Virus record (IMG/VR): IMGVR_UViG_3300033068_001704
Span: 32,001-96,000 of that record
From: a virus
Lineage: Duplodnaviria > Caudoviricetes
Direction: 5' to 3' (one strand)
Length of the DNA stretch: 64,000 nt
The translations under genes and the position numbers were made by a program. Below, one piece after another: positions 18,709 to 35,357 of this stretch (position 1 is the first letter of the stretch; each line of letters begins with the position of its first letter). The notes under the pieces were generated by a model, which ran no database searches, was not told where the DNA came from, and saw nothing but the letters and a program-made list of their open reading frames with translations.

Positions 18709-19467
18709 ATGACTGATTCGAACGATCCTTTCGACGCCACCAAGGCAATCGATCAGGCCCTCGACCTCTCGAATGACCCGGCCCTTGTGGTCGAGGTGGT
18801 ACCTTCCTCGACCCGCATGATCCAAGGATACCCCATCCCCGATGGGGCCCAGAGGGTCAGGGTCACGGACGAGAAGGGGAAGGCGTGCTGGAGAAGACTC
18901 GATGCAGTCCTCCCCACAGACACGATCGACCTGACGGGGAAGGGTCATCCCCAGTGGATGTACAACCAGGTTGGGCGTCCGAAGACTCAACAGCTCCATG
19001 AGATCGTCCCTCCTGCCACCGCGGTGATTGGGGACCTGATTCGGGCTCGACAGGCGCTCATGCGCTCGGACCCGGTCATCCTCGCGGCGGAATCGACCCC
19101 GGAGTCTCCGGAGGTCTTGAACCAGGTCCTCATCGCGCTCTCGGAAGAAGCTGCCTCTCTCAGGTTCGAGAGGCTCGAAGCAGAGCGCAATGGAAACGAC
19201 ACCTCTCCTTTCTCGGTGCGACGTGTCGCTGCCCTGAAGGCGATCGGTGACGCTTGGATCAAGCGCAAGGAGCAGATCCAGAGTCGCGAGATCGACCTCG
19301 AAAGCCCTGTCTTCGGGGAGCTGCTCAAGCTCATCTCGGAGACGTTCGCACGGTCCATGGTCGAGGCGGGCGTCCGCCAGGAGATGATGGACACGGTCTT
19401 CGCGAAGTTCACGCGTCAGCTCGATGACACGTGGAAGAACGAAGCGAAGTCACGGATGGCTAAGTGA
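18709..19467 (+). CDS. Probable terminase small subunit
   Basis: Directly upstream of and overlapping TerL; GRPK motif, helical C-terminal half. Confidence 0.5.
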   Translation: MTDSNDPFDATKAIDQALDLSNDPALVVEVVPSSTRMIQGYPIPDGAQRVRVTDEKGKACWRRLDAVLPTDTIDLTGKGHPQWMYNQVGRPKTQQLHEIVPPATAVIGDLIRARQALMRSDPVILAAESTPESPEVLNQVLIALSEEAASLRFERLEAERNGNDTSPFSVRRVAALKAIGDAWIKRKEQIQSREIDLESPVFGELLKLISETFARSMVEAGVRQEMMDTVFAKFTRQLDDTWKNEAKSRMAK

Positions 19468-21341
19468 GCCTCGGGAACTTCGTCCTCTCCGGCGCACGGG
19501 CGGTCTCTTCCGAGAAGACGAACAAGCCCGTCGCGAGCGCTGTCGAGTTCGTGGAGGAGCCCTGGGGCCTCGGGATGAAGCTCTTCCCGGTCCAGAGGGT
19601 CATCCTGAAGTGCCACTATGGGCTTGAGCTTGACGACAAGGACAAGTTCAAGATCTCCAACTGGCAGCGGGACAAGACCCTCGAATTCACAGAGCGGGAG
19701 TACCTGGAATACCTCTACAACGAGGGCCGCTCGAACATCAAGGAGATCGACCACGAGCGGCGAGAGATGATCCTCTCGATCGGTCGTCGTTCCGGCAAGA
19801 CCACGCTCTCTGCCTGCGTCGCAGCGTACGAGACGTACAAGCTCATCTCCAAGGGAGACCCCCAGGCGTACTACGGCCTCCCGCAGTCGAACATGATCCA
19901 GTTGATCTCGGTCGCTACCGACAAGGATCAGGCTGGACTCCTGTACCAGGAAGTCAGCGGACACTTCCGGAATTGCAGCTTCTTCGCCCCCTACACCGCG
20001 AACAACACGATGTCCTACGCCCGCTTCCAGACGCCCAAGGACGTCGAGAAGTACGGGGCATACATCGACGACCCGAGCGCGAAGGCGACCATCAAGGTCA
20101 CGTTCCGCTCGTGCGTGGCGAAGGGTCTTCGAGGCGCCGGCAACATCGTCGTCATCCTCGACGAGGTCGCCCACTTCACTGACGCTGGGCAGTCGTCGGC
20201 CGACTCGGTCTACAACGCTGTCGTTCCTTCGACCTCCGCCTACTCCCCGAAGGACCCGAACGATCGCCGGGTCCCGACGGGACAGGTTGAAGCCCGGGTG
20301 ATTCTGATCTCGTCCCCGCTCGGACGTCAGGGCTTGTTCTACAAGCTCTTCACGATGGGCATGAGCGGTGGGTCCGTCGGCAAGAACATGCTCTGCATCC
20401 AGGCCCCGACCTGGGAGGTGAACCCTACGGTTCCCGCGAGCGAGTTCGAGAAGAACTACCTCAAGGACCCTGCCGTCTTCTTCACGGAGTACGGCGGTGA
20501 GTTCACGGATCGAACGCGTGGTTGGATCGAGCGGGAGGAAGACCTCGTCGCCTGCATCAACAAGGACCTCCGACCGTTGGTTCGAGGGATCCCGCGCAAG
20601 CCCCACTTCCTCGGGCTCGACCTTGGTCTCGTGGGCGACGGGACGGCCATTGCCGTAGGCCACATCGAGGAAGGCGGCCTGATTCAGACCGACTACATCG
20701 ACCAGATCAAGGCGGGGGAGGGGAAGCACAAGGACAAGGAGCGCCTCGACTTCGACGATGTCGCGGACTGGATCAAAGAGGTCTGCAATCGCTTCTACAT
20801 CGTGGAAGGCATCTTCGATCAGTGGGCCGGCATCCCCTTGGAGCAGGCCCTCGCGAAGAGGGGTCTGGCACAGATGAAGGCGGTTCAGATGACCAAGAAT
20901 CTGACCTCTCAGATGTTCCAGAACTTCAAGGACATGATGTGGGACAAGAAGCTTGTCCTGTATGACTACCCGATCTTGCAGAACGAGCAGCACAGCGCCC
21001 ACATCACGGAGTTGCTCGAACTTCAGGCTCGTTTCCAGTCGAAGTACATCACGACCGTAGAAGCCCCGAACATCGAAGGGAAGCACGACGATCTCTCCGA
21101 CGCGATCGTCCGCATGGTCTGGGTCGCCTCGAATCGTCTCATGAAGCAACCGCACCTTGCGGGGTCTGGTGTCGCATCAGGGTTGACGATCGGGGGGACA
21201 GGGATCCCGCCCTCGGCTCGAAGGCGACTTCTTCAGAGCGGTAGCCACGAGTCCCGGATGGTTCCGAGAGGACCTGGGATGAGGGGCGGGGCGGGACGCG
21301 GGAGATCCCCGCTCGGTGGAAGACCTCTGCGCGGGAGGTAG
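19464..21341 (+). CDS. terL: Terminase large subunit
   Basis: Walker A GRRSGKT, Walker B VVILDE, coupling motif LISSP, EYGGEF, RNase H LGLDLG ... HDDLSDA. Confidence 0.93.
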   Translation: MSLGNFVLSGARAVSSEKTNKPVASAVEFVEEPWGLGMKLFPVQRVILKCHYGLELDDKDKFKISNWQRDKTLEFTEREYLEYLYNEGRSNIKEIDHERREMILSIGRRSGKTTLSACVAAYETYKLISKGDPQAYYGLPQSNMIQLISVATDKDQAGLLYQEVSGHFRNCSFFAPYTANNTMSYARFQTPKDVEKYGAYIDDPSAKATIKVTFRSCVAKGLRGAGNIVVILDEVAHFTDAGQSSADSVYNAVVPSTSAYSPKDPNDRRVPTGQVEARVILISSPLGRQGLFYKLFTMGMSGGSVGKNMLCIQAPTWEVNPTVPASEFEKNYLKDPAVFFTEYGGEFTDRTRGWIEREEDLVACINKDLRPLVRGIPRKPHFLGLDLGLVGDGTAIAVGHIEEGGLIQTDYIDQIKAGEGKHKDKERLDFDDVADWIKEVCNRFYIVEGIFDQWAGIPLEQALAKRGLAQMKAVQMTKNLTSQMFQNFKDMMWDKKLVLYDYPILQNEQHSAHITELLELQARFQSKYITTVEAPNIEGKHDDLSDAIVRMVWVASNRLMKQPHLAGSGVASGLTIGGTGIPPSARRRLLQSGSHESRMVPRGPGMRGGAGRGRSPLGGRPLRGR

Positions 21342-21959: not shown

Positions 21960-23753
21960 ATGAAGACGAGTCGTCAGGACGACCCCCAGGGGCGTGAGGT
22001 CGGACGCATGAAGCGTGCGGGCCAGGGCGACAAGACCGCTCGCCCCGCGCCTTATGCGGGGCAGCGCTCGGAATCCGAGGGTCAGGGCGGCGTGGAGGTC
22101 AAGCGCGTCAACAAGCGCGCGAACGTCGAGGTGGGGAAGCCGACCCGCATTCTGACGAGCGCGATGCGCTCGAAGGTCGCGTTCCCCTCGGTGGGTGCGA
22201 CCTCGTCGGCAAGCGGCGGCAACTTCTACTCGCCGGAGCTTTCGACCGACTTCCTCGAACTGCCTCAGTCCGCCGATGAGAAGCGGAATTACTTCCGGTT
22301 CTTCTACGAGACTGACCCCTTCGTAGGTCAGGCCGTGGACCTGCACACGGAGCTTCCGCTGTCGAAGGTCCGTCTCGGGATGCCGGACGCGAAGAGCACA
22401 GCGCTCGCGAAGCGGTCGCTCGATTTCTGCTCTCGGTGGTCGAAGAAGATCGGCCTACTTCAGCACCTCCTCTCGATCGTCCACGATTACAACCTCCTCG
22501 GTGAGGTTTTCGTGTTCGCCGAGGACACCTCCCCCGACATGCCCGAGGAGGTGATGTACGACTACGAGCGGGAGATCGACTCGGACGGGAACGCAGTCGA
22601 GGCCAAGAAGAAGCGCCCTGATTGGGCGGAACGTGCCGAAGCCTGGCTGAAGAAGAACTACACGGGGTGGACGGCCATCCGAGTTCTTCCGCCCGAGCAG
22701 ATTCAGGTTGAGAGCTTCCCGTTCACCGACGAGAAGATGATCGAGCTGATCCCCGACTCCAAGACCAAGGACCTGATCGCAAGGGCCGAGGGGGGGGATG
22801 TCCGGGCGGCCAAGATCGTCAAGACGATGCCCAAGGACGTCGTCGAATCCATCCGTGAAGGGAACAACATCCCCCTGAACACGGACCCGGAGGCGGGAAG
22901 CTTCGTCAGCTACCTCGCCCGAAAGAAGTCGCAGTACGAGCCGCGTGGGCACTCGATCTTGGAGCGCTGTCTCCGGATCCTTGTCTACCGCGACAAGCTT
23001 CGTCAGGCCCAGACCTCCATCGCTTCCCGGCACATGACCCCGATCCGGGTTGTGTGGGCAGAGGATGCGGATGCCCCGAGCGTGGATGCGCTCCGTGAGC
23101 AGGTCGAGCTGGCTCTCATGGATCCGGACTACTCCATCGTCACGAACTTCCAGGTGAACTGGGAGGAGATGGGCAGCAACGGCCGTCTTCTCGAACTCTC
23201 CGGTGAGTACGAGATGACGGATCGGCAGATGTACGCCGGCCTCGGGGTCACCGAGAGCCTCCTGTCGGGTGAGTCGAGCTACTCAGGCGACCGGATCAAC
23301 CTGGAGGTCATCAACACCAGGTACATGCTCCTCCGAGAGATCCTCCAGGACTTCGTGGAGAACAACCTCTTCCGGCCGATGTGCCAGAGGATGGGCTTCG
23401 TCGAGACCGACGCGGAAGGCAACGAGGAAGTCATCGTCCCGAGCCTCTCGTTCACGCGGCTCGCTCTGCGCGACAACGCAGATACATTCGATGCCCTGTT
23501 CAACCTCTACCAGAAGGGCTCGTTGGACATCGATGTCATCCTGGAGCTGCTGAACATCGACCCGAACACGACGCGCGAGAAGCTCATCCGAGACCTCTTC
23601 ACCGTCAACGACGCGAAGTTCAACGACATGCTCGGGGGCATCTACGGGTCCGCGGGCCAGGCGCTGGTCGAGAACTCCGATGTCATCGAGAAGCTCGCCA
23701 AGTACCTCCACCTCAAATTCGAGAAGAAGAGCGAAGAGGGGGGTCGTTTCTAG
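21960..23753 (+). CDS. Portal protein
   Basis: 597 aa after TerL; FFYETDPFVGQAVDLHTELP, GEVFVF, RGHSILERCL, GLGV..SLL.G helical pattern typical of portals. Confidence 0.8.
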   Translation: MKTSRQDDPQGREVGRMKRAGQGDKTARPAPYAGQRSESEGQGGVEVKRVNKRANVEVGKPTRILTSAMRSKVAFPSVGATSSASGGNFYSPELSTDFLELPQSADEKRNYFRFFYETDPFVGQAVDLHTELPLSKVRLGMPDAKSTALAKRSLDFCSRWSKKIGLLQHLLSIVHDYNLLGEVFVFAEDTSPDMPEEVMYDYEREIDSDGNAVEAKKKRPDWAERAEAWLKKNYTGWTAIRVLPPEQIQVESFPFTDEKMIELIPDSKTKDLIARAEGGDVRAAKIVKTMPKDVVESIREGNNIPLNTDPEAGSFVSYLARKKSQYEPRGHSILERCLRILVYRDKLRQAQTSIASRHMTPIRVVWAEDADAPSVDALREQVELALMDPDYSIVTNFQVNWEEMGSNGRLLELSGEYEMTDRQMYAGLGVTESLLSGESSYSGDRINLEVINTRYMLLREILQDFVENNLFRPMCQRMGFVETDAEGNEEVIVPSLSFTRLALRDNADTFDALFNLYQKGSLDIDVILELLNIDPNTTREKLIRDLFTVNDAKFNDMLGGIYGSAGQALVENSDVIEKLAKYLHLKFEKKSEEGGRF

Positions 23754-23780: not shown

Positions 23781-24194
23781 GTGGCGGACCTTCTCCCGAT
23801 CATGCACCCCCTCTACAACCTGAGGGAAATCTGCAAGCAGTCCGCGTTGTTGGAGGACCACCTCAACAACAAGCGCAAGCGCTGCGAGGACTGCATCAGG
23901 AAGCACTTCCTGACGATCGAGGCTCTGTTCGAAGAGGCTCTATCGCTCGACAGTGAGCAGAAGTGGTTCGAGCACCTGGATGGGAAGGCGGATGATGTCC
24001 GGCTCCTTCAGGAACGATGGCTCGACGGGGAAGACGAGCTGGACGTCGCCCAGGAACTGAGAGCGATGCGCAAGGAATTCGCACCCATCTGCTTCGATCT
24101 CCGTGAGATGACTGAAGAATCTCGCCTGGCTTCACTCGCCTCCCAAGTGGCTGACGTCTTCCTGGGACGCCGGGTAGCGCACACGGGAGGCTGA
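23781..24194 (+). CDS. Hypothetical protein (CxxC..KH)
   Basis: LLEDHL....KRCEDCIRKH; C-terminal RLAS/RRVA motifs. Confidence 0.65.
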   Translation: MADLLPIMHPLYNLREICKQSALLEDHLNNKRKRCEDCIRKHFLTIEALFEEALSLDSEQKWFEHLDGKADDVRLLQERWLDGEDELDVAQELRAMRKEFAPICFDLREMTEESRLASLASQVADVFLGRRVAHTGG

Positions 24195-24195
24195 G

Positions 24196-27100
24196 ATGGG
24201 GGCCACTAAGCTCCACGTCTTCGACTTCGACGGCACCCTCTTTCTCAGCCCTGACCCCCCTCCGGGTACGGCACATGAGGACTGGTGGTCTCGGTCGCCT
24301 TCTCTGTCGCCCCCGTGCGTCCCTGAGCGGCCGTCGCGGGACTGGTGGAACCAGTCTGTCGTCGATGCTGCGAAGGCGGCGATCCAGGACAGTGACGGGA
24401 TCGCAGTGCTCGTCTCGGGTCGGGAAGAGAAGTTCATGCTTCGGGTGAAGGACCTCCTGAGCCAGGCGGGCCTGCACTTCGCTGAGGTGTACCTGTCCCC
24501 CGGGAAGGTCACGACCGATCGCTTCAAGATGGACGTGATCTGGAAGCTCCTCGACAACAACGCGGGCATCCGAGGGGTCTCGATCTGGGAAGATCGTGAT
24601 GACCACCTGCGTGTGTTTGCCGATGCGATCGAGGCACGAGGCCGAGCTTGCTTCCCTCATCTGGTGACAGTCCCCCGGAAGGAAGCCGACTGCTCGGCGG
24701 TGCGTGTCGCAGCTCGCTACAAGTCGAAGAAGAAGGACGAAGACGGCAACGTCCACTACGAGTACAGCGAGCGCCAGGTCAAGAACCGGCACAACGAGAA
24801 GGCTGAGCGCGTCGAGAAGCTCAGGAAGAACCTGAACGACCTCCGCAAGAAGGTCCTCTCGGACCTGAAGGTGGAGGACCCGAAGACGAGTCTCGCGGCT
24901 CTCGCTGTGGCCCTCATGGATGAGACCATCGAGCGCGTCGGGAACGATGGCAGCGCTTCCGAGGGTCACTTCGGGGTCACGGGGTGGTGCAAGAAGCACC
25001 TCACCTTCCGAGGCAACAAGGCGATCTTCAAGTACGTCGGCAAGTCTGGCGTCGATCAGGAGAAGGAAGTCACGAAGGCCCCGGTCGTGAAGCTCCTTCG
25101 TGAGCTGGCGCGTGGGAAGGGGAAGAATGATCGGCTGCTCGAAAAGGACGGCGTCGAGGCGAAGCCCGAGTTGGTCAACGAGTACCTGAAGCACTTCGAC
25201 ATCACCGCGAAGGACATCCGTGGCCTCCGAGCCAATCAGGAGATGTGCGAGGCCCTGAAGCGGACCCGGAGCAACGGGTCGAAGCTTCCGAAGGACCGCA
25301 AGAAGCGCGATGGGATCCTGAAGAAGGAGTTCCAGAAGACGTTGGAGGAGGTCGCCGACATTGTCGGTCACGAGCCTGCGACGTTGAGGTCGGACTATCT
25401 CGTCCCCGGGCTGGAAGACACCTTCATGAAGGATGGGACAGTCGTCTCGTCCTTCAAGTCGGCCACCAAGACCGAGGGTGAGCGAGAGGATGAGGCCACG
25501 CAGGCGCTCATCAAACCCAGCCCGAAGAAGAAGCCCCCTCGGGACGATCTCCGCAAGCGGAGGATCGAAGTCGATGATTCGGACGTCGGGGGCAAGGACC
25601 CTGACCTCTCTCTCAACTACAAGAGGGTTGCATCGCGGATCGCGATGTCAGTCCGTGTCGCTTCGCGCTTCGCCGGGAGGATCCCGATCCTGGTGGACGT
25701 GGCCTCGACCATCGAGGTGCGCCGGAAGCACCCCTCTCACCCCGAGGCGGTCTCCGCGACGTTCACAGGTCCCGTGATCCTCTATCGCATCTTCGACGGG
25801 GAAGAGCTTTCCCGTGCCCTCAAGGCAGGGAAGATCACGGGCGGGACCTACGCTGTGAAGGCCGAACGAGAGGTCGGGGCCTCATGGGGCACCAACCTGT
25901 CGGAAATCGTCCGGTGGGGCAACTCTCAGCGTGGGAAGCGTCTGGGGGAAGACCTCTTCGTCGCACGGCTGAATGCAGCTCGGAAGCGCTTCCTGCATCT
26001 CAACCCTGAGATCGACCCGATCGATCCGACGGGTGCCGCGGAGCAGATCCGCAGCATGGATGCGAGCCGCATCAACCTTGGTCTCGGGGCCTCGGTGGCG
26101 GACGTCTCCATCCAGAACGTGGGCCTGTTCAAGGTCCAACTGGATGGTCGTGTGGATGCGATCTCCCCCATGGAGGCGCAGTCGTACGTGGGGCTCCGAT
26201 CGAAGTTGGAGGTGGATCTCCGAGCGGTCAATTCCCAGCTCTACCAGGGCTCCATCCTTGGGGTGGACGTGCGCATCTGGGACAAGGGGGGTCGGTGGGG
26301 GGCATACCTCAATGACGACCGCCAGATCGCAACGAACGCTGCGACGAAGGATGACGCCATCGAGCTGGCGAAGATGGCGATTCGGATGAACCCGTCTCGC
26401 CCGGTCCAGATGGATGGGGCCATCTTGGCTCAGCGCCGGAAGTACGATCAGAACTTCGTGGCGGACGAAGACCCGAAGAAGGTCCGTGGCAATTTCAAGG
26501 TGCGCCCCCGAGACCGGGTCGAGGTGGTGAAGGGCGCTCCTGGGGTTGGGATCAAGGCTCGCGAGAAGCTCACCGTCGCCGATGTCTATCAGCTTCAGGG
26601 GGAGCGTGAAGTCCGCGTGAAGCTGCTGGCCGGGAACCGGCCTGTCCTCCTGTACGCGATTCACCCGAACCGCCTCATGGATCCGGAGATCCCGCTGCTC
26701 GACAGCCGGGGTCACCGAGTCCTGGTTCGCCCTCTCATTGACTCCCACCGTGTCGCTATGGCGATGAGGATCGCGGACGCCGAGATGGAGTTCGAGGAGT
26801 TCGTATCAGGCAAGTCGTTCCCGCACCCGAAGACCAAGAACCAGGTCAAGTTCCCCTCTCTCCCCATGGAAGAGCAGGATCGAATTCGGAAGGAGTGGGC
26901 CAAGAAGAGTGGCCCGAACGTTCCGAAGAAGTCTCCGAAGAAGTCCCCGAAGGAGACTGAGGGCAAGACTCCGGAGAACGCTGAAGCCGAAGCCGCGGAG
27001 AACGCGAAGAAGCTCAAGGATGAGCTGCGCGGCAAGGCCAGGTCTCTGGGGGATTCCCCTGCCTTCTCGGGTCGAACCCAGAAGGTGGTGGATGACACTC

Positions 27101-28380
27101 TGGATGGCCTCCTCGATTCCATGTCGGTGGAAGAGGCCTCGGAATTCGTAGCGGCGATCGTCTCTTCCCGCGATGCGGGGATCTCAGCGGTGGTGCGCAC
27201 CAAGAACCTCTCGGGTGTCCCGCCGGCTCCCAACGAGAACCAGCTCGCAGAGCTTCGGACGGACTACCGGAACCTCTCGAAGAAGGTGTCCGAGATCGAG
27301 TCCGAACGGGATGGGGCGGAGGACGACGACCAACGGAAGAAGTTCGAGGAGCAGCTCAAGCCGCTTGCCGAAGAACTCTCCGCGGCCCGCGAGAAGCTCC
27401 AGAACGGCTTCTCGAAATTCTACACCCGGGAGGCCGTCTCCGCGGCGCTCATCAACCCGATGACATGGCTGAAGGACGACGCGTCCACCCCCCTCGACAA
27501 GAAGAACGTCGGCACCCGAATCGAGGGGACGGTCAGTCGTTATCGCGACCTGGATGAGAGGGGCCGGGAGCAGTCTGCTGAGGCACTCGGAGACGTGGAG
27601 GAGAAGACCCTGGGGCGGATCGAGGAGCTGGAGGAGACCCTCCGGTCAGGGGACGACGTCTCCCAGGATCGAGCCGCTCTCACCCGTGAGCTGGAGGACG
27701 CGAAGAACCTCCTGGAGTACGTGGCGGCAGACCGCCGCGCCCTGGAGATCTCGGCCGTGTTCGAAGGGGACCGTGACGCTGGGGAGGGGATCCCGAAGGG
27801 GACCCGAGCCATGCTCAAGGCGCTCAAGGGCAGCGGGGTCATGATCTCGGAGATGATGGAGGCAGGGCTGGGCGTCCCTGGCTCGGAGCCGGAGGTCGAG
27901 GCGATCTCCCACCTGGTCCGGAAGATGGACCCGGAGCAGATGGAGGAGACCCTCCGTGCGCTCGATCCGAAGCTCGCGGATGTCTGGAAGAAGCTCCAAG
28001 AGGCGGACGACGAGGACCCGAAGTATCGGTGGCCGTTCTCTGGGCTCAGCAAGCTCGACGAAGGGTCGAGACGCGAGAAGATCGAGAACGCCCACAAGAT
28101 CTTCGTGGACCTGCTGACCGGGGTCGCGGTTGAGGACCTGTCAACCGATCAGACCTTCACCCCTTCCGCCCCGAAGGGCGCCCCCAAGACGAAGTCCAAG
28201 ACGAAGTCGGAACCCAGCGACTTCGAGGAACGTGGTGGGGATGAGGACGAGGAGACGACCTATGAGTCGCCGTTCAGCACGGCGATCGAGGACCTCGTGA
28301 AGCTCGATATCCCTGTGGATTCCCCGGAGTCGGGAAAGACTGGGTCGTACCCGACCTGGCCGACCCCGATTCCCGTTTAG
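24196..28380 (+). CDS. Multidomain polyprotein: HAD phosphatase + DNA topoisomerase IB core + ART-like domain + coiled coil
   Basis: LHVFDFDGTLF/SGR/FK/WEDR (HAD); ERVGN, VGKSG, AKDIR, VGH, RSDYL (TopIB R-K-R-H-Y); ILYR...ASWG (ART-like, weaker). Confidence 0.85.
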   Translation: MGATKLHVFDFDGTLFLSPDPPPGTAHEDWWSRSPSLSPPCVPERPSRDWWNQSVVDAAKAAIQDSDGIAVLVSGREEKFMLRVKDLLSQAGLHFAEVYLSPGKVTTDRFKMDVIWKLLDNNAGIRGVSIWEDRDDHLRVFADAIEARGRACFPHLVTVPRKEADCSAVRVAARYKSKKKDEDGNVHYEYSERQVKNRHNEKAERVEKLRKNLNDLRKKVLSDLKVEDPKTSLAALAVALMDETIERVGNDGSASEGHFGVTGWCKKHLTFRGNKAIFKYVGKSGVDQEKEVTKAPVVKLLRELARGKGKNDRLLEKDGVEAKPELVNEYLKHFDITAKDIRGLRANQEMCEALKRTRSNGSKLPKDRKKRDGILKKEFQKTLEEVADIVGHEPATLRSDYLVPGLEDTFMKDGTVVSSFKSATKTEGEREDEATQALIKPSPKKKPPRDDLRKRRIEVDDSDVGGKDPDLSLNYKRVASRIAMSVRVASRFAGRIPILVDVASTIEVRRKHPSHPEAVSATFTGPVILYRIFDGEELSRALKAGKITGGTYAVKAEREVGASWGTNLSEIVRWGNSQRGKRLGEDLFVARLNAARKRFLHLNPEIDPIDPTGAAEQIRSMDASRINLGLGASVADVSIQNVGLFKVQLDGRVDAISPMEAQSYVGLRSKLEVDLRAVNSQLYQGSILGVDVRIWDKGGRWGAYLNDDRQIATNAATKDDAIELAKMAIRMNPSRPVQMDGAILAQRRKYDQNFVADEDPKKVRGNFKVRPRDRVEVVKGAPGVGIKAREKLTVADVYQLQGEREVRVKLLAGNRPVLLYAIHPNRLMDPEIPLLDSRGHRVLVRPLIDSHRVAMAMRIADAEMEFEEFVSGKSFPHPKTKNQVKFPSLPMEEQDRIRKEWAKKSGPNVPKKSPKKSPKETEGKTPENAEAEAAENAKKLKDELRGKARSLGDSPAFSGRTQKVVDDTLDGLLDSMSVEEASEFVAAIVSSRDAGISAVVRTKNLSGVPPAPNENQLAELRTDYRNLSKKVSEIESERDGAEDDDQRKKFEEQLKPLAEELSAAREKLQNGFSKFYTREAVSAALINPMTWLKDDASTPLDKKNVGTRIEGTVSRYRDLDERGREQSAEALGDVEEKTLGRIEELEETLRSGDDVSQDRAALTRELEDAKNLLEYVAADRRALEISAVFEGDRDAGEGIPKGTRAMLKALKGSGVMISEMMEAGLGVPGSEPEVEAISHLVRKMDPEQMEETLRALDPKLADVWKKLQEADDEDPKYRWPFSGLSKLDEGSRREKIENAHKIFVDLLTGVAVEDLSTDQTFTPSAPKGAPKTKSKTKSEPSDFEERGGDEDEETTYESPFSTAIEDLVKLDIPVDSPESGKTGSYPTWPTPIPV

Positions 28381-28473
28381 TTCATTATTTCAAGACCTCA
28401 CATAGGTAGGGTGCCCTTGCGGCACATTCATAGGCTCCAACCAATTGCGGGCCTTCACTGGAGGATTCCCCCG

Positions 28474-29040
28474 ATGACCGTCAAGAAGGCAACCGCAGCG
28501 GGCGCTCGTCGCGTGACCGCGAATCTCGACAACCTCGCGAACCTGTTCCAGAACCACGCGGAGGCGCTCGGCGTCCCGAAGAAGGTGGCGATGGACTTCG
28601 CCTTCCGCTGTGACCTCCTCTCGGACGCCATCGAGAAGACGGCAGGCTTCGATGCCGCGTCGATCGGCAAGGTCGTTCCGGGTCCCGTGGAGATGGACTC
28701 GAACAACGCCTTCATGAAGGGCGAGTTCACGCAGGAGGAGAACGAGCAGCTCTCGCAGAAGCAGGAGAGCGGCACGCTCGCCCAGGGCGACAAGCTCGCA
28801 TCGCTCATCGCGCGTGAGGCGACTCGCATCGCGCACGAGATCATCGCGAAGGGCAAGCCCTTCCCCGGCGCAGCCGCCCCCTTCGGCTCGAAGGACGACG
28901 ACGCGAAGGACGACGACGCGAAGGACGAGTCCAAGAAGGAGGCCAAGAAGGCCGAAGAGGACGAGGACGAGAAGGGTGAGGCAGACGCCGAGGCGGCGAA
29001 GAAGAGCGCCTCGATGTTCGGTCTCTACTCCGCGAAGTGA
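28474..29040 (+). CDS. Head assembly/core (scaffold-like) protein
   Basis: GGAGG RBS, strongly biased codons, acidic/Lys low-complexity tail, upstream of protease. Confidence 0.55.
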   Translation: MTVKKATAAGARRVTANLDNLANLFQNHAEALGVPKKVAMDFAFRCDLLSDAIEKTAGFDAASIGKVVPGPVEMDSNNAFMKGEFTQEENEQLSQKQESGTLAQGDKLASLIAREATRIAHEIIAKGKPFPGAAAPFGSKDDDAKDDDAKDESKKEAKKAEEDEDEKGEADAEAAKKSASMFGLYSAK

Positions 29041-29660
29041 GCAGTCCCGTGCCGGTTCGCAAGGGTCACTACGTTGATTACCAGGCTCGTGGGGCTGCCT
29101 TCAGGGTTGGCGACCACGTGTACCCCATCGTTGGCGGCAATCCCGCGACGGGTGGGACGGTGGTCGCGGTGTGGCCCGCGATCGGCATGGTGGACGTTCA
29201 GTTCCCCCATGGTGCGACCCGTTACGCAGTCGAGGAGCTGGTCATCGACAGAGACTCGTCCGTCGAGAACCTCGTCGATGTGATGTCGGACTCTGTGCCT
29301 GGTGGCACCCCGACCGTCTCGGTGCCCGGCGGCCCGAACGTTCTCCTCAAGGACGTTCGGGACGAGGATGTCGAGGAAGACCTCTTCCGAGAGGCGAGCA
29401 TGTCTCGCAAGGCCTCCTCGGGTCGCGTCATCGAGGCCTTCATCAAGAAGGCGATCTACTGGGATTCCCCCGGTAGGAAGTACCGGATGACCCGGTCGGA
29501 GATGGGTTCGATGTGCCCCTCGTGCCCCAGGTGTCCTGGGGTCGAGCTGCGCAAGACCATCTACAAGCGTGAGGACGCTCGGAACGAGCGCTTGTACGCG
29601 TGCCCCGACTGCCTGTTCATGATCCGCCGAGACGACATCATCGGATTCGGAGAGGTGTGA
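29037..29660 (+). CDS. Hypothetical head-module protein with C-terminal Zn ribbon
   Basis: SH3-like FRVGDHV...GTVVAVWP; CPRC...ACPDC. Confidence 0.65.
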   Translation: MSSPVPVRKGHYVDYQARGAAFRVGDHVYPIVGGNPATGGTVVAVWPAIGMVDVQFPHGATRYAVEELVIDRDSSVENLVDVMSDSVPGGTPTVSVPGGPNVLLKDVRDEDVEEDLFREASMSRKASSGRVIEAFIKKAIYWDSPGRKYRMTRSEMGSMCPSCPRCPGVELRKTIYKREDARNERLYACPDCLFMIRRDDIIGFGEV

Positions 29661-29663
29661 GCG

Positions 29664-31142
29664 ATGGCCTTTCTCCGGTACGCACGGGCACAGGTCACGC
29701 GCCCTCAGGTCCAGGGTCAGCTATGGGACAACGTTCGGGTTGCGTCTGGCGTGCGCCGGGCGGACCGGAACCTCGTCGATCAGGCCTCCAAGATCCTCCA
29801 GGATGATTTCGACCCCTCGAAGTACCTCCTGACCCACGCGACGATCGTCGCTTCGGTGGACACCGTCCCTGGCCCGAGCACGAAGCTCGGGAAGGTCACG
29901 GAGGAAGGCCGGAAGATCGTCCGCAAGACGGCGAACTACCGGGTCAAGGCCTCCTGCGACAAGTTCATCAACAACAACCTCGACTGCTGGGCGAGGCCTG
30001 TTCTGCTCAAGTCGTACCCGACGTTCGTCGGGGCGCACTCGTTCGTCGAGCACGTACAGATCGAGAACCTGTCCAAGGGCCGCATCATCGATGCGGTGGG
30101 TCGGGACATCGGCGACTCGATCTACGTGGACATCCTCGTTGCGAACGACCGCAAGCACGCAGAGCTGATCAAGGACATCGAGTCCGGCAAGCTTTCGACG
30201 CTGTCGATGGGTTGCTCGATCGATGGTTCGACCTGCACGAAGTGTGGTCACTGGGCGGCGGACGAGACCGAGTTCTGCGACCACATCAAGTACGAGAAGG
30301 GCAACATCTTCTACGACGACAACGGTCAGAAGTACCGGGTCGCCGAGCTGTGTGGAGATGAGTCCCTCGACCCCAGCGGAGGGGTGAAGTTCATCGAGGC
30401 GTCGTGGGTCGAGATCCCGGCGTTCACGGGGGCAGTCGCCCGGAACATCATCACCGTGAACTCCGAGAGCGGGAAGAAGAAGACTGCGCAGCAGATCCAG
30501 CGTGTCTTCGAGGGTTCGGAGCCGTTCTCGCCGGACCTGGGATCGATGCAGCGGGCTGCTTCGGACCTTGGTCTCGACCGGCAGGCAGACCTCTCGTACG
30601 TCGCTGGGATGTTCGATGAGGAAGAGGGGGGAGAGACTCCTCCCCCCTCGGAACCCGTCAAGTCTCCCCTCGACGACCTTCGTGGGAAGGTCAAGCAGCA
30701 CCTGCTCGACGACGTCCTCCAGGAGCTGGAGGACGAGATGTCCAAGAAGGATGTCGAAGACCAGGTGATCCCGAAGTCGGACGCCCCGAACGACAGCGTC
30801 GTCAAGCAGGCGAAGCATCGTTTCGTCAGGGCTGGGATGAAGCGCGTGTACGTCGCTTCGCTCCGAACCCTCGTCTCGACCGCCTCGAATGACGCCGCCC
30901 TCATGAACGGAATTGCGACCCTGAATGCCGAAATCGGAATTCAGGTTCCGGTTTCTGTCTATAGGGCTGCGCTAAAGGTCGGGGCCTACTCCCGATACGC
31001 AGGCCCTCAGCAATTCCTCAAGGCAGCCGGGGAAGCCCTCGGACATACGCCTTCCCACAGCGAAACGCGGACGCTCGCGCGCCTCGCGTATCTGCTGGAA
31101 GAACGATCGAACCACTCGGCGTCACGCCGAAACCGTTCCTGA
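29664..31142 (+). CDS. Prohead maturation protease (HK97/assemblin-like serine protease) with Zn-finger insert
   Basis: NNN.D.W, F.GAHSFVEH, GRIIDA, LSMGC (catalytic Ser), CTKC...CDH, FIEASWV..PA; position before scaffold and MCP. Confidence 0.8.
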   Translation: MAFLRYARAQVTRPQVQGQLWDNVRVASGVRRADRNLVDQASKILQDDFDPSKYLLTHATIVASVDTVPGPSTKLGKVTEEGRKIVRKTANYRVKASCDKFINNNLDCWARPVLLKSYPTFVGAHSFVEHVQIENLSKGRIIDAVGRDIGDSIYVDILVANDRKHAELIKDIESGKLSTLSMGCSIDGSTCTKCGHWAADETEFCDHIKYEKGNIFYDDNGQKYRVAELCGDESLDPSGGVKFIEASWVEIPAFTGAVARNIITVNSESGKKKTAQQIQRVFEGSEPFSPDLGSMQRAASDLGLDRQADLSYVAGMFDEEEGGETPPPSEPVKSPLDDLRGKVKQHLLDDVLQELEDEMSKKDVEDQVIPKSDAPNDSVVKQAKHRFVRAGMKRVYVASLRTLVSTASNDAALMNGIATLNAEIGIQVPVSVYRAALKVGAYSRYAGPQQFLKAAGEALGHTPSHSETRTLARLAYLLEERSNHSASRRNRS

Positions 31143-31154
31143 AGGAGAACACTC

Positions 31155-32453
31155 ATGACGCGCCGCCGACTGACTCAGCACCGCCAGGCATCCGCTGCAC
31201 CCGCCCTCCCCACCGAGGCAGGGGGACACCCGGCGTCCTACCCGGACCCCGACGAGAACGCCTACATGAACGGCGATCCGTCGTCGTGGGCGGAGGACCC
31301 GACGAGCGGTCCCTACCCGAACGGCGAAGCTCCCGCCCTCCCCACCGAGGCAGGCGGACACCCGGCTTCGAAGTCGGCTTCGCGCGAAGTGCGCGCGGCC
31401 ATGGAGCAGAAGGCTGCGCGCTGCATCCGCATCGCTCAGTCGATGCTCGGCCGCAAGGCTTCGGTCGAGTCCATCGAGGACCAGGCCCTGGAGCTGATGA
31501 GCCTTCCCGACCGTCAGATCGCGGCGACCCTCAGCCGCATCGCGGACGAGCGCTCGGCGTCGAGCCTCCGTGAGGCAGACGACCTGATCGCTGACGATCT
31601 CCTCGTCGATGAGGAGGACGTCGCTTCGGCATCGTCGCGTTCGGCCAAGAAGGCGGACGAGGACGAGCTGGAGGAGGTCGAGGTCGAGGAGGAGAAGGAC
31701 GCAGCGAAGAAGGCGGCTCACTACGCCCGTCTCGCCGCGCACTACGGCTCGATCGCCAGCAAGTCGGCCTCGAAGAAGTCCGAGGACGAGGAAGAGGAAG
31801 ACCTTCTCGCCGAGATGGAAGAGGAGGAGGCGAAGAAGTCCGCCGCCAAGAAGTCCGAGGACGACGAGGACACCGAGGCTCTTCTCGCAGAGATGCTGGA
31901 GGAAGAGGAGAAGAAGAAGTCTGCGTCGAAGAAGTCGGAAGACGAGACCGACGAGGACGAGGCGAAGAAGGAAGCCGCCAAGAAGTCGGAAGACGAGGCC
32001 GAGGACGAGGAGGCGAAGAAGGAAGCCGCCAAGAAGTCCGAGGACGAGGGCCAGGACGAGGCAGCGGACGCGGACGACGACGTCGAGGCCTCGAAGAAGG
32101 CGTGCGGCGAAGAGGACGGTCTGATGGCCGAGTTCGGCGACGACCTCGACCCGATGGCGTCGATGGACGACGTCCCGGGCATGGGCGACGACGAGATGGA
32201 GATGCTCTACGGCTCGCACTTCGCCTCGAAGAAGTCCGAGGACGAGGGTGACGAGGGTGACGAGCCCAAGGAGGAAGAGGAGGGGGTCAAGAAGGCCGCC
32301 GCCGTCCGCCCGCAGCCCCGTCGCGCCTCGACCGGCGTCCGCACCCTCGGTGCGGTGAGCAAGACCGCTTCGGCGGCGAGCGGTGGAACCGAGATCTCGG
32401 AGCTGTCGAAGCTCTGGGAGTCGGCCCCCGACGTCTCGAAGATCTTCGGCTGA
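31155..32453 (+). CDS. Capsid scaffolding protein
   Basis: Highly acidic with KKSED repeats, conserved-looking C-terminal LSKLWESAPDVSKIF; between protease and capsid genes. Confidence 0.75.
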   Translation: MTRRRLTQHRQASAAPALPTEAGGHPASYPDPDENAYMNGDPSSWAEDPTSGPYPNGEAPALPTEAGGHPASKSASREVRAAMEQKAARCIRIAQSMLGRKASVESIEDQALELMSLPDRQIAATLSRIADERSASSLREADDLIADDLLVDEEDVASASSRSAKKADEDELEEVEVEEEKDAAKKAAHYARLAAHYGSIASKSASKKSEDEEEEDLLAEMEEEEAKKSAAKKSEDDEDTEALLAEMLEEEEKKKSASKKSEDETDEDEAKKEAAKKSEDEAEDEEAKKEAAKKSEDEGQDEAADADDDVEASKKACGEEDGLMAEFGDDLDPMASMDDVPGMGDDEMEMLYGSHFASKKSEDEGDEGDEPKEEEEGVKKAAAVRPQPRRASTGVRTLGAVSKTASAASGGTEISELSKLWESAPDVSKIFG

Positions 32454-32708: not shown

Positions 32709-33389
32709 ATGCCTTTGCTTGGACAGGCGAGCGGTGGGTGGACTGAGAGCAGCTCGGCCCTGAGACTTCTCCACGTCGGTGTGCGCAACACCGTCGGAGT
32801 TCTCACGGACGACAGCTTCACGCAGTCCAACCCCCCGATCGTGACGACCGCAGGAACGATCTCCACCGCACCCGGCCTCCTCACCGAGGTTCACGGCGTG
32901 CTCTCGGGCTCCGTCGCGTTCGCCCGCCCCGATGGCGGATCGAACTTCATCGGAGGCCCCGTCACCGTCGCTGCGAGCGGCGTGACGGCAGCCCAGGCGC
33001 TTCGCACGCGTCCGGTCGGCTGCTTCATCAACAACGCGATGGGCAACGCGTACGAGAACCTTCCGGGGGTCGCCTCGAACAAGGGTCCGTACGTTTCGGC
33101 GCAGGGCACCTACGGCAACCGTCTCTACGAGACGGAGCTGCTCGCGGCTGCCGCACCGTTCGCTCAGGGTGCGTCGATGACGTTCATGGCGGGCATGGAG
33201 CTGGTCGCTTCGGTGAACGGCTACCTCATGCCTCGTGAACTCGACAACGCGGGTGCCTCGGTGTCGATCGACATCACGGGTGCGTCCCTCGAAGTCACGA
33301 ACGGGCGCGCGTCGAGCACGCTCATGGGCATCCTCAAGATGGTTCCGGACTCGGTCCAGACCGAGCTGGTCTACGACCAGCGCGTCTGA
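32709..33389 (+). CDS. Head decoration/capsid cement protein
   Basis: Immediately upstream of MCP; small beta-rich protein, highly expressed codon usage. Confidence 0.65.
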   Translation: MPLLGQASGGWTESSSALRLLHVGVRNTVGVLTDDSFTQSNPPIVTTAGTISTAPGLLTEVHGVLSGSVAFARPDGGSNFIGGPVTVAASGVTAAQALRTRPVGCFINNAMGNAYENLPGVASNKGPYVSAQGTYGNRLYETELLAAAAPFAQGASMTFMAGMELVASVNGYLMPRELDNAGASVSIDITGASLEVTNGRASSTLMGILKMVPDSVQTELVYDQRV

Positions 33390-33417: not shown

Positions 33418-34293
33418 ATGTCGAACGTCAGCAACGCGATCAAGCAGAAGATCATCAGCGACTACCTCAAGACCGCTTCGGGCCGTAACAAGCTCGCAGC
33501 GTCGATGACGCAGCCGCTCCGCACGCGCCGGGACTACATGTCCGTGGGCCGCAAGACCTTCCTGGTCGAGCAGCTCCCCGACGGCGCACTCCCGATCTAC
33601 GACAAGGACCCGGACGTCACGGCGTACGTGGTCGGCGAGGAGGGCGAGAACATCCTCGCCATCACCAAGCCGCGTCGTGTGATCTTCCCGCTGTTCGAGA
33701 TCGCCTCGAACCCGGAGATCCCCCTCACGCAGATCAAGGAGCGCCGCTTCGACCTCATCGAGCGCGCCCAGGATCTCGCGCGAGCCATGATCCAGGCCGC
33801 CGAGGACGAGCGCGTCTTCGCAGTCCTCGACGCCATCGCCGTGAACGGGTTCGACTCGATCCCCGGTGGCACCAACGCAGACATCCCGGTGATCGCGCCC
33901 ATCAACGGCGCAGTCCTCGCGGATGCCTTCGCGATGATCGAGCGTCATGACCTGCGCGTCGCGCGCGTGTACATGAACGCGCGGGACTACGCGGACATCC
34001 GCAAGTTCGGTCGCGACATCCTCGACATCGAGTCGCAGGCGACGCTGCTCAAGACCGGCCTCCAGGCAACCCTCTGGGGCGCCCAGGTCATCACGAGCCG
34101 TCTCGTCCCGGTCGGCACGGTGTACATCTGCTGCGAGCCCGAGATGTTCGGTCGGATCCCGGTCCGCACCGAGCTGACGGTCCTCTCGGCCGACGACCCG
34201 AAGGCCCGGACCATCGGCTTCAGCGTGTTCGAAAATCTCGGCATCGGCGCGTACAACCCGCGAGGCCTCACCCGCCTCACGGTCACCCGCTGA
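33418..34293 (+). CDS. Major capsid protein (HK97 fold, encapsulin-like size)
   Basis: 291 aa from ATG 33418; GR.KLAASM.QPLR...DY..VGRK.F.VEQLP.GALP.YD; AEDER.FA; MN.RDY.DI; followed by terminator. Confidence 0.85.
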   Translation: MSNVSNAIKQKIISDYLKTASGRNKLAASMTQPLRTRRDYMSVGRKTFLVEQLPDGALPIYDKDPDVTAYVVGEEGENILAITKPRRVIFPLFEIASNPEIPLTQIKERRFDLIERAQDLARAMIQAAEDERVFAVLDAIAVNGFDSIPGGTNADIPVIAPINGAVLADAFAMIERHDLRVARVYMNARDYADIRKFGRDILDIESQATLLKTGLQATLWGAQVITSRLVPVGTVYICCEPEMFGRIPVRTELTVLSADDPKARTIGFSVFENLGIGAYNPRGLTRLTVTR

Positions 34294-34412: not shown

Positions 34413-35357
34413 ATGAAAGCCATCCCTTGCCCTGTCTCCCAGGAAGAGCTTCGGGTCCTCGTGTGGGACGAGAAGCTCACAGACGAACAGATCGCGACTC
34501 GACTCCCAGATGGGACAGCGAAGCGTGTTCGGTCATGGCGCGAGCGGTATGGGATCGAGACGCACCCGAGATGGGCTCGGAACGAAGTCCCCCCGATCGA
34601 GGGGAAGCTCCATTCTCTCCTCGTCGGGTCGATGCTTGGAGATGGACGCATCGTCCACCGCACGAATGCAGCCCACTACAGCGAGAGCCACAGCGGCGCG
34701 CAGCGGTCCTACCTGGAGTGGAAGGCGGACCTCTGGGGGTCGTGGGCACGCCCGATTTTCAACGTTCCGGACAATCGTGGCTACGAGCAGGTCCGGATGA
34801 ACACGGTTGCCCATGGTGCCCTGGTTCCGTGGAGGGACATGTTCTACCCGAGTCGGGAGAAGGGCTGGAAGAGACTCGTCCCGAGCATCGTGGACCTCGT
34901 GGACGAGTTCGCGCTCGCGATCTGGTACCTGGATGATGGGTGCTCTTCGTGGTGGCCCACCATCACCTTCGGGATGGATGAGGGGAGCTGGAAGATCGCC
35001 GGGGCCATCTTCGAGAAGTTCGGCCTTCAAGTGAGGTGGGGGCCGAAGCGAGGTGCCACGGGGGAGTTCTACATGGAGAGGGAGGACACGGCTCACCGGT
35101 TCCTCGACCTCATCACCCCCCACGTCCCCGAGTGCATGAGCTACAAGCTCTCTGGGTTCGGGTTCCAGGGGCCCCACTACCACGTCCGAGGGAGCCTGAC
35201 GGAGGCTTCGCTCCGGGACTACGCGGCGCGTCAGGTCCCGATCCAGAAGATCGCCAGAGAGCTGGGCGTTGGGGCCACAACCGTGGACACCTACCTGAAG
35301 AAATTCGGGATCGAGCACGCAAGGAAGCGGGGTCGCCCCAGCGTCATGGGGGAGTAG
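34413..35357 (+). mobile_element. Free-standing LAGLIDADG homing endonuclease with flanking HTH domains
   Basis: LVGSMLGDGRI and ALAIWYLDDG motifs; N- and C-terminal HTH-like segments. Confidence 0.85.

Follow-up and report, generated by a model that had tools for sequence, protein, structure and literature searches.

A 1394-aa protein, P0001, encoded directly behind the portal region of a large tailed phage, is best explained overall, by a modest preference, as a post-portal head protein bearing enzyme modules that would be loaded into the capsid and released. That P0001 belongs to the head-associated polyvalent proteins appears very probable. Its gene lies in the window (the whole 64,000-nucleotide stretch analyzed here), which represents positions 32001-96000 of the 222-kb IMG/VR record IMGVR_UViG_3300033068_001704, rated 50% complete by CheckV, and has a G+C content of ∼63%, even along its length. 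Coordinates below are those of the window unless stated otherwise. The modules of P0001 are joined by copies of a short peptide, here called the RVA tag, whose strict form was defined as [AS]x-R-V-A-[AS]-R-[YFW] and whose looser form as [VI]A[ASTG][RK][YFW]. The P0001 gene gave no match to phage records by megablast; the closest public phage record is LR745208.1, an unannotated 485-kb 'uncultured phage'.

Enzyme modules of P0001

The protein is divided as follows (pLDDT, predicted local distance difference test score of AlphaFold2 (AF2) models; TopIB, topoisomerase IB; ART, ADP-ribosyltransferase):

24196..28380, plus strand: P0001, post-portal polyvalent head-module protein; intact open frame of 1394 codons
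24196..24675, plus strand: HAD_SAK_1 phosphatase module, aa 1-160 (Pfam, 3.6e-18; AF2 pLDDT >90 over aa 1-156)
24703..24720, plus strand: tag 1, RVAARY, aa 170-175, just ahead of the TopIB hairpin, in a disordered linker (pLDDT <50 at aa 164-175)
24721..25440, plus strand: minimal TopIB, aa 176-415 (Pfam, PDB alignments, AF2)
25456..25623, plus strand: charged conserved leader, aa 421-476, ATKT..E.EDE..KP.PK.KPPR.DL..DLSLNYK (pLDDT 42-58)
25624..25671, plus strand: tag 2, tandem RVASRI-AMSV-RVASRF, aa 477-492, whose end is 3 aa short of the first cassette strand
25672..26745, plus strand: inserted 358-aa cassette, aa 493-850, of a family without a Pfam model
25747..26172, plus strand: predicted ART-superfamily-fold domain, aa 518-659 (model residues 26-167; structure matches)
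26488..26742, plus strand: putative SH3/Tudor/KOW-like small barrel, aa 765-849 (model residues 273-357; VIA-align)
26749..26775, plus strand: tag 3, RVAMAMRIA, aa 852-860, whose start is 5 aa past the last cassette strand
26776..28380, plus strand: E/K/D-rich tail, aa 861-1394, common to P0002-P0015

An earlier note, made from the letters of this DNA, had parsed P0001 into an N-terminal HAD, a TopIB with all five catalytic residues and an ART-like region, with RVA motifs as the domain boundaries. The parse was borne out by Pfam, by AF2 and by BLAST boundaries across homologues. Comparison with 41 homologues resolved the HAD (1-170), TopIB (170-420), a segment at 421-492, the cassette (493-850) and the tail (852-1384), and the limits of these modules coincide with RVA tags. 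The three motifs start exactly where the note had placed them: VRVAARY at nt 24700, KRVASRIAMSVRVASRF at nt 25621 and HRVAMAMRIA at nt 26746.

The HAD and the TopIB were both recognized by Pfam well above the cut-off. HAD_SAK_1 (PF10307) matched aa 28-150 with 66.5 bits (cut-off 25.6), and HAD motif I (DxDxT) is present as D10-F-D12-G-T14 (DFDGT, aa 10-14), which is kept in all HAD-bearing homologues (18/18). The region aa 4-143 also matches phrog_415, annotated as polynucleotide kinase (2.2e-4). Topoisom_I (PF01028) matched aa 197-396 with 76.5 bits (cut-off 23.7), and the PDB matches of this part were the enzymes of D. radiodurans (2f4q), variola virus (2h7f) and vaccinia virus (1a41). Alignment to 2f4q and 2h7f placed the catalytic pentad at R247, K283, R342, H392 and Y401, and all five positions are invariant in an alignment of 36 homologues. 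Their counterparts in 2f4q we take to be R137, K174, R239, N280 and Y289. The references are aligned only from residue 62-67 on, and in the AF2 model, where the confident fold spans aa 177-413, a single hairpin (aa 177-189) lies ahead of the core. Most of the full N-terminal DNA-binding domain of poxvirus and bacterial TopIB was found neither in the alignments nor in the model of P0001, and the enzyme is therefore a minimal form without most of that domain. Judged from its residues, the active site is intact, and relaxation activity is predicted.

The cassette belongs to a family of mostly free-standing proteins of 250-400 aa, 99 of which were found at E <= 0.001 in a search of 1.8 billion cluster representatives; elsewhere the cassette was found fused only in P0028. 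No Pfam, PHROG or PDB sequence match was obtained for it, and phmmer and profile searches against PDB sequences (with aa 470-1394 and with the cassette alignment) gave no matches. An AF2 model built from an alignment of 76 relatives reached a pLDDT of 96.3. When this model was compared with 48,161 PDB representatives by VIA-align, aa 518-659 were covered almost only by ART-superfamily chains: among the top 25 matches, 17 cover this region, and 15 of the 17 belong to the ART superfamily, with modest Z values of 5.1-6.7. The best ART-fold match was Tpt1 (7yw2; Z 6.7, rmsd 2.7, 95 aligned), and further ART chains matched were CC0527, EcPltA, TreX, heat-labile enterotoxin (LT), scabin, DarT, TreTu, Tne2, pertussis toxin and pierisin. 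An ESM-Atlas shape search returned a DUF952 cluster (TM 0.62 by that row, 100 aligned). Foldseek against PDB and BFVD gave no match at E <= 0.001 (all E >0.03), with one cholera-toxin A row (probability 0.84) as its sole hint of an ART fold, and a language-model atlas gave sub-threshold leads only, Tox-ART-HYD1 and PARP at 0.86. Since the single scores are modest, the case for the ART fold rests on the consistency of the matches.

With ∼100 representatives at 50% identity, the cassette defines an enzyme-like family that has a predicted ART-type fold and 14 nearly invariant residues (R531, D534, E537, G549, G550, E557, R558, G561, W564, R582, F599, H601, G631 and S633). Conserved candidates for ART positions are the Arg of LYR (R531) and the Ser of GASW (S563). 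A conserved ExE or QxE is absent from the family, as judged from the sequence and the predicted strands, where only Q617 (45/71) was found, with a hydrophobic residue two positions on. With E values as high as 5 allowed, none of the 76 members matched an ART family of Pfam, and the two Cys present in ∼87% of the family are replaced in P0001 by I626 and A632. For the LYR...SW ART-like region proposed in the earlier note, an ART-type fold is predicted at modest scores, and 'ART-like' is apt in that sense; with neither a conserved ExE/QxE nor a Pfam match, ART function is a candidate only. At aa 765-849, VIA-align gave matches (Z 5-6.5) to the RecD2 C-terminus, FeoA, CarD, NusG KOW and the UvrD/PcrA Tudor domain; the evidence for this small barrel is weak because the fold is common.

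Head-module context, leader and tail

The gene order of the head module is TerL, portal, 137 aa, P0001, 209 aa, 207 aa, protease, scaffold and major capsid protein (MCP), with the following members besides P0001 (ORF, open reading frame):

19464..21341, plus strand: large terminase (phrog_2, 5.8e-30)
21960..23753, plus strand: portal protein (phrog_16240, 2.2e-38)
23781..24194, plus strand: conserved 137-aa post-portal protein (p137) with a tag-like C-terminus, where relatives carry true tags
28411..29660, plus strand: two conserved head-module ORFs, of 209 aa and 207 aa (p207) (synteny)
29664..31142, plus strand: prohead protease-like protein, 492 aa (phrog_18299, a head-maturation-protease match)
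31155..32453, plus strand: acidic repeat protein, probably scaffold (sequence and synteny)
33418..34293, plus strand: MCP (phrog_2522, 9.5e-49)

The place between portal and prohead protease that had been ascribed to P0001 agrees with these PHROG matches and is kept in relatives. Three homologue contigs and LR745208.1 share the order terminase, portal, a ∼135-aa protein, a variable polyvalent protein, proteins of ∼200 and ∼195 aa, protease, scaffold, a ∼226-aa protein and capsid. A wider set of 80 related IMG/VR loci was then classified by the position of the TopIB ORF. It lies between portal and protease in 43 of them, and in 12 the protease is downstream and the portal beyond the locus end; the rest are 14 loci of a second arrangement (type B), one short contig and 10 loci without recognizable head genes. 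In type B, a separate TopIB gene directly follows the terminase gene and is followed in turn by the portal, a protein that begins with the leader, and the protease. TopIB thus stays within the head module in 69 of the 80 loci. Its partner modules vary and include 2H/LigT, PolyA_pol (CCA-type), PAP2, Ham1 and PRTase; a HAD is found beside it in only ∼1/5 of the loci.

The family consensus of the stretch at aa 421-492 is ATKT..E.EDE..L.KP.PK.KPPR.DL...D.DLSLNYKKVA..RVA. The leader moves independently of TopIB, being located directly behind the HAD in P0042 and behind inserted domains in P0009, P0019 and P0023. In type B phages it begins the protein encoded after the portal (three of the 14 type B loci were read). 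Because the leader starts the type B protein, P0001 is best read as the conserved post-portal protein of the clade (leader and tail) to which HAD-TopIB has been attached N-terminally and the cassette after the leader; among the 80 loci, the cassette has this position only in P0001. On this reading, P0001 is a conserved head protein with grafted enzyme modules.

The tail, for which the earlier note proposed a coiled coil, is E/K-rich, with weak FlxA-type matches, and is not present in loci L001, L005 and L006. It was not found as a separate gene, in a search that gave only P0013 and that low-complexity words may have saturated. The post-portal proteins of three type B loci (L033, L062 and L066) share the C-terminus GKST.G.PLAP, which resembles the end of P0001, SGKTGSYPTWPTPIPV; the post-portal protein may have a conserved element at its C-terminus.

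Several further observations concern the neighboring genes. The MCP ORF opens at 33235, and its start was placed at an internal Met; the homologues are of 291-293 aa. Immediately 3' of the capsid gene, a 314-aa ORF (34413-35357) has LAGLIDADG-like features (LGDG, YLDDG) and may encode a homing endonuclease. The prohead protease family comprises more than 1294 relatives, on contigs of up to 518 kb; within its catalytic domain, an insert resembling a zinc ribbon contains four invariant Cys (C184, C191, C194 and C205), followed by C230.

The RVA tag in P0001 and other proteins

None of the RVA motifs falls inside a predicted fold, a finding that would have counted against the reading in the earlier note. 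In the AF2 model of aa 1-500, residues 422-500 have a pLDDT of 42-58, with a weak helix only at aa 475-493, and on the models all three tags are in flexible linkers outside the folds. Among the 41 homologues, 47 distinct instances of R-[VI]-A-[ASGT]-[RK]-[aromatic] were identified; they are located close to N-termini, at module joints or 8-25 residues short of a C-terminus, and usually follow [AS]-[SM]-A-[SV]. The copies differ in their codons, which argues that selection acts on the peptide.

The tag is also strongly concentrated in the P0001 family and in other effector-like proteins of the genome. A position-specific scoring matrix trained without P0001 detected 4-5 sites in the 222-kb record, compared to 0.2-0.45 in shuffled proteomes. 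Across the 80 loci, the looser tag has a frequency per 1000 aa of 0.74 in TopIB/post-portal ORFs, 0.036 in other recognizable head genes and 0.075 in all other ORFs, i.e., it is ∼20 times denser in polyvalent ORFs than in other head genes. No match to the looser tag was found in 59,131 residues of protease homologues.

Proteins with nothing to separate carry the tag as well. Many free-standing cassette proteins start with it or a variant, 5-8 residues before the first strand, and stand-alone TopIB proteins of related phages likewise start with a tag. In LR745208.1, a 508-aa HAD-TopIB protein ends 8 residues past TVASRW; the strict back-translated tag is present there in a single copy, and the variants NVAAKY and TVASRW are used. 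Three proteins encoded elsewhere in the genome of P0001 are tagged, the latter two outside the window:

45366..46121, plus strand: 251-aa tagged protein with the tandem tag RVASRALAVRVALRY at about aa 130-145
G000:C1:191312-191983 (L004:813-1481): 223-aa InPase protein (PF18823, 2.2e-8) with the N-terminal tag-like RVARVASLKM
G000:C1:104748-105839 (L003:749-1837): 363-aa zincin-like protein with two N-terminal tags, SRVASEY and ARVASRF, and an HEFGH motif

The InPase protein additionally has KTASRVASRF at aa 153, followed by a small C-terminal domain. The zincin-like protein gave no significant Pfam or PHROG family (a sub-threshold ATLF match had an E of 0.2) and might act as an effector or as a tagged peptidase for processing. 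The same short peptide is thus common to unrelated proteins: P0001, the InPase, zincin-like and 251-aa proteins, and the free-standing cassette and TopIB proteins of relatives. A full-text literature search found no paper with the strings RVAARY, RVASRF, RVAARF or RVASRY.

Because the tag persists at termini that border no second module, its role goes beyond that of a cutting site; the terminal tags are better matched by an address or docking function, perhaps combined with cutting, than by cleavage between domains alone. The proposal that RVA motifs mark domain boundaries holds at the module joints and has to be widened: they also occur at free termini, and aa 421-492 form a conserved leader, which is more than a boundary.

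The prohead protease has a related element of its own. Near its N-terminus, W21...R25-V-A27-[SA] is kept in 37/37 relatives; this is compatible with an autoprocessing site and could equally well have a structural role. When the catalytic part of the protease (aa 35-290) and the junction peptide (aa 460-500) were modeled as a complex, the score was 0.02, which is evidence neither way. The tag as a general maturation site of the head protease was rejected, the scaffold and MCP being without the strict motif; a lone 'SERVAEG' upstream of MCP falls in the likely non-coding extension of the MCP ORF.

The 207-aa protein (29037-29660) contains a tag-like helix, RV..[FY][IL]K.A.YW, in the form GRVIEAFIKKAIYW, represented in its relatives by RVASAYIKQAVYW and RVASKFLKQAVYW (L001:11159-11740 and L020:13243-13791). 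It also has a CxxC...CxxC motif close to the C-terminus.

Proposed loading and release, and comparison with known systems

In the mechanism that we propose, the leader, tail and tags would bring P0001 into the procapsid. The tags would act in addressing or docking and probably also mark the places where the prohead protease frees the modules, and the released enzymes would exit with the DNA. TopIB would then relax the incoming genome for early transcription, as the poxvirus virion TopIB does, the HAD would dephosphorylate nucleic-acid ends, and the ART-fold cassette would modify a host target. The balance tips slightly toward packaging and delivery of P0001; that it is cut at the tags is possible, with the odds somewhat against it. 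We propose only tentatively that a single peptide code (the tag, often after a KPPR/DLSLNYK leader) marks enzymes for capsid loading and release throughout a clade of huge phages.

Several points weigh against this mechanism. Both packaging and cleavage are inferred. In the virion proteome paper on phage PaBG, a phage with a TopIB, 14 proteins from Coomassie-stained gel bands are reported, and TopIB is unmentioned. The strict tag is not present in scaffold or MCP, the classical protease substrates, and cleavage is unnecessary to explain the tag, since stand-alone relatives keep terminal tags. Finally, the cassette may not be an ART, or may be inactive in P0001, because the family has no conserved catalytic Glu and its two Cys are missing here.

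The tag might be only a docking or address peptide, e.g., an amphipathic helix that binds scaffold, portal or the inner capsid face, as the cargo-loading peptides of encapsulins do, with P0001 delivered uncut or cut elsewhere. Tags that begin many free-standing cassette proteins and stand-alone TopIB proteins, or that lie 8-25 aa before a C-terminus, are as this would predict, as are the tag-like helices in p137, p207 and their relatives, and the weak helix at aa 475-493. However, a single address would not require several tags per protein, set exactly at each joint and frequently in tandem, and the protease has its own conserved RVA[SA]; we therefore consider docking without cutting at the tags unlikely. 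Another view is that the joints have no biochemical role and are leftover hinges that merely facilitate the recombination of modules. Tags do coincide with the limits of modules and, in split forms, of genes. Yet the codons differ between copies, so that conservation does not lie in homology at the DNA level; proteins that are 50-60% identical share the peptide, as do unrelated ones; and it persists at free termini, which leaves this view with very little probability.

Two other explanations concern what the enzymes do. P0001 might not be cargo at all and might act in the cell during head assembly or packaging, with TopIB, for instance, relieving torsion as a >400 kb genome is pumped in and the place in the head operon reflecting co-expression. 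A stand-alone TopIB gene does lie directly after the large terminase gene in 14 loci, and packaging of P0001 is itself inferred. We regard this as improbable because TopIB is fused to varied effector modules without an obvious packaging role (2H phosphoesterase, CCA-type nucleotidyltransferase, PAP2, PRTase, ART-fold), and because fusion to a conserved E/K-rich head protein, together with the common tags, points to one location. Little credence is likewise given to a nucleic-acid end-repair kit, in which TopIB, as a strand transferase on 5'-OH ends, and the HAD, as a 3'-phosphatase, would undo host anticodon-nuclease or RNA/DNA-nicking damage. The HAD family is named for RNA-repair proteins and matches a polynucleotide-kinase PHROG, relatives add LigT/2H, PolyA_pol/CCA-type and PAP2 modules, and the ART-fold domain has its highest-scoring structural counterpart in Tpt1, an RNA 2'-phosphotransferase. 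No kinase or ligase module was seen, however; the pairing of HAD with TopIB is confined to the ∼1/5 of loci noted above, the Tpt1 match is weak (Z 6.7) and concerns the fold only, and an RNA activity of TopIB is pure supposition.

If the tag really is such a signal for loading and release, the injected proteome of these phages would be readable from sequence alone and predictable from metagenomes. TopIB would be its commonest injected member, a bacterial-virus counterpart of the poxvirus virion topoisomerase, and the tag would provide a handle to load foreign proteins into large capsids. A tailed phage with a particle-borne TopIB would also resemble poxviruses in the way in which transcription of the incoming DNA is started.

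Poxviruses carry TopIB in the virion. The poxvirus and bacterial enzymes have the same catalytic core and R-K-R-H-Y pentad as P0001, which has the pentad His of poxviruses where D. radiodurans has Asn. The domain of P0001 differs from them in being embedded in a 1394-aa head protein of a virus with a bacterial host and in mostly missing the N-terminal domain. That a capsid-borne TopIB would be unusual in a tailed phage, as the earlier note had supposed, agrees with the literature: no description of one was found in the papers searched, where TopIB is outside the polyvalent repertoire.

A precedent for loading and cutting is provided by phage T4, in which Alt (an ART) and the internal proteins are loaded via a short terminal targeting peptide and cut by gp21, an assemblin-fold prohead protease, at the motif L/I-x-E. 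The P0001 system similarly has a short shared peptide on unrelated cargo-type proteins, with loading and cutting proposed by analogy; it differs in the motif, R-V-A-[AS]-R-[YFW], and in having several tags per protein. At the herpesvirus assemblin M-site, cleavage a few residues from the C-terminus frees a head-bound protein, to which the C-terminal tags in relatives of P0001 may be analogous.

Among jumbo phages, a 'phage-specific topoisomerase I' has been noted in PaBG, Lu11 and phiRSL1 and treated as a DNA-topology enzyme (Iyer et al. 2021, PMC7824862). In cultured phages, the closest match to the TopIB of P0001 is PaBG gp084 (28% identity over the core, E 4e-5); it is a stand-alone protein of 562 aa, whereas the TopIB of P0001 is fused. 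The gp084 gene is located ∼4 kb upstream of the major head gene. Between the tail sheath and major head genes of PaBG (L008, NC_022096.1 48353-64880) are encoded gp084 (TopIB), gp090 (HAD-like), gp089 (SprT-like) and an MmcB-like protein, a cluster that echoes the HAD/zincin/TopIB association at the annotation level only. The SprT-like and HAD-like neighbors were rejected as homologues of the zincin-like and HAD proteins of the genome studied here, as no BLAST similarity was found.

The closest comparison is with the polyvalent proteins of phages and conjugative elements (Iyer, Burroughs, Anand, de Souza and Aravind 2017, PMC5512222), whose repertoire includes ART, 2H, PRTase and InPase, and for which processing by zincins or assemblin-like peptidases is described. 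In text searches of the same paper, TopIB occurred only in a reference title, and the junction tag and conserved leader were not described; P0001 also differs from the polyvalent type in having no MuF or zincin domain in a Pfam scan. The likenesses are several. P0001, with its HAD, TopIB and ART-fold cassette, has at least two unrelated effector-type domains and lies in a head-gene (portal-terminase) neighborhood; polyvalent proteins likewise combine several unrelated effector-type domains per polypeptide and are encoded in a head block with the portal-terminase system. The InPase of the polyvalent repertoire has a counterpart in the genome of P0001 that bears the same tag, and its Pfam family was built from polyvalent proteins. 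Processing and delivery with the DNA is the idea that polyvalent proteins and the proposed reading of P0001 have in common.

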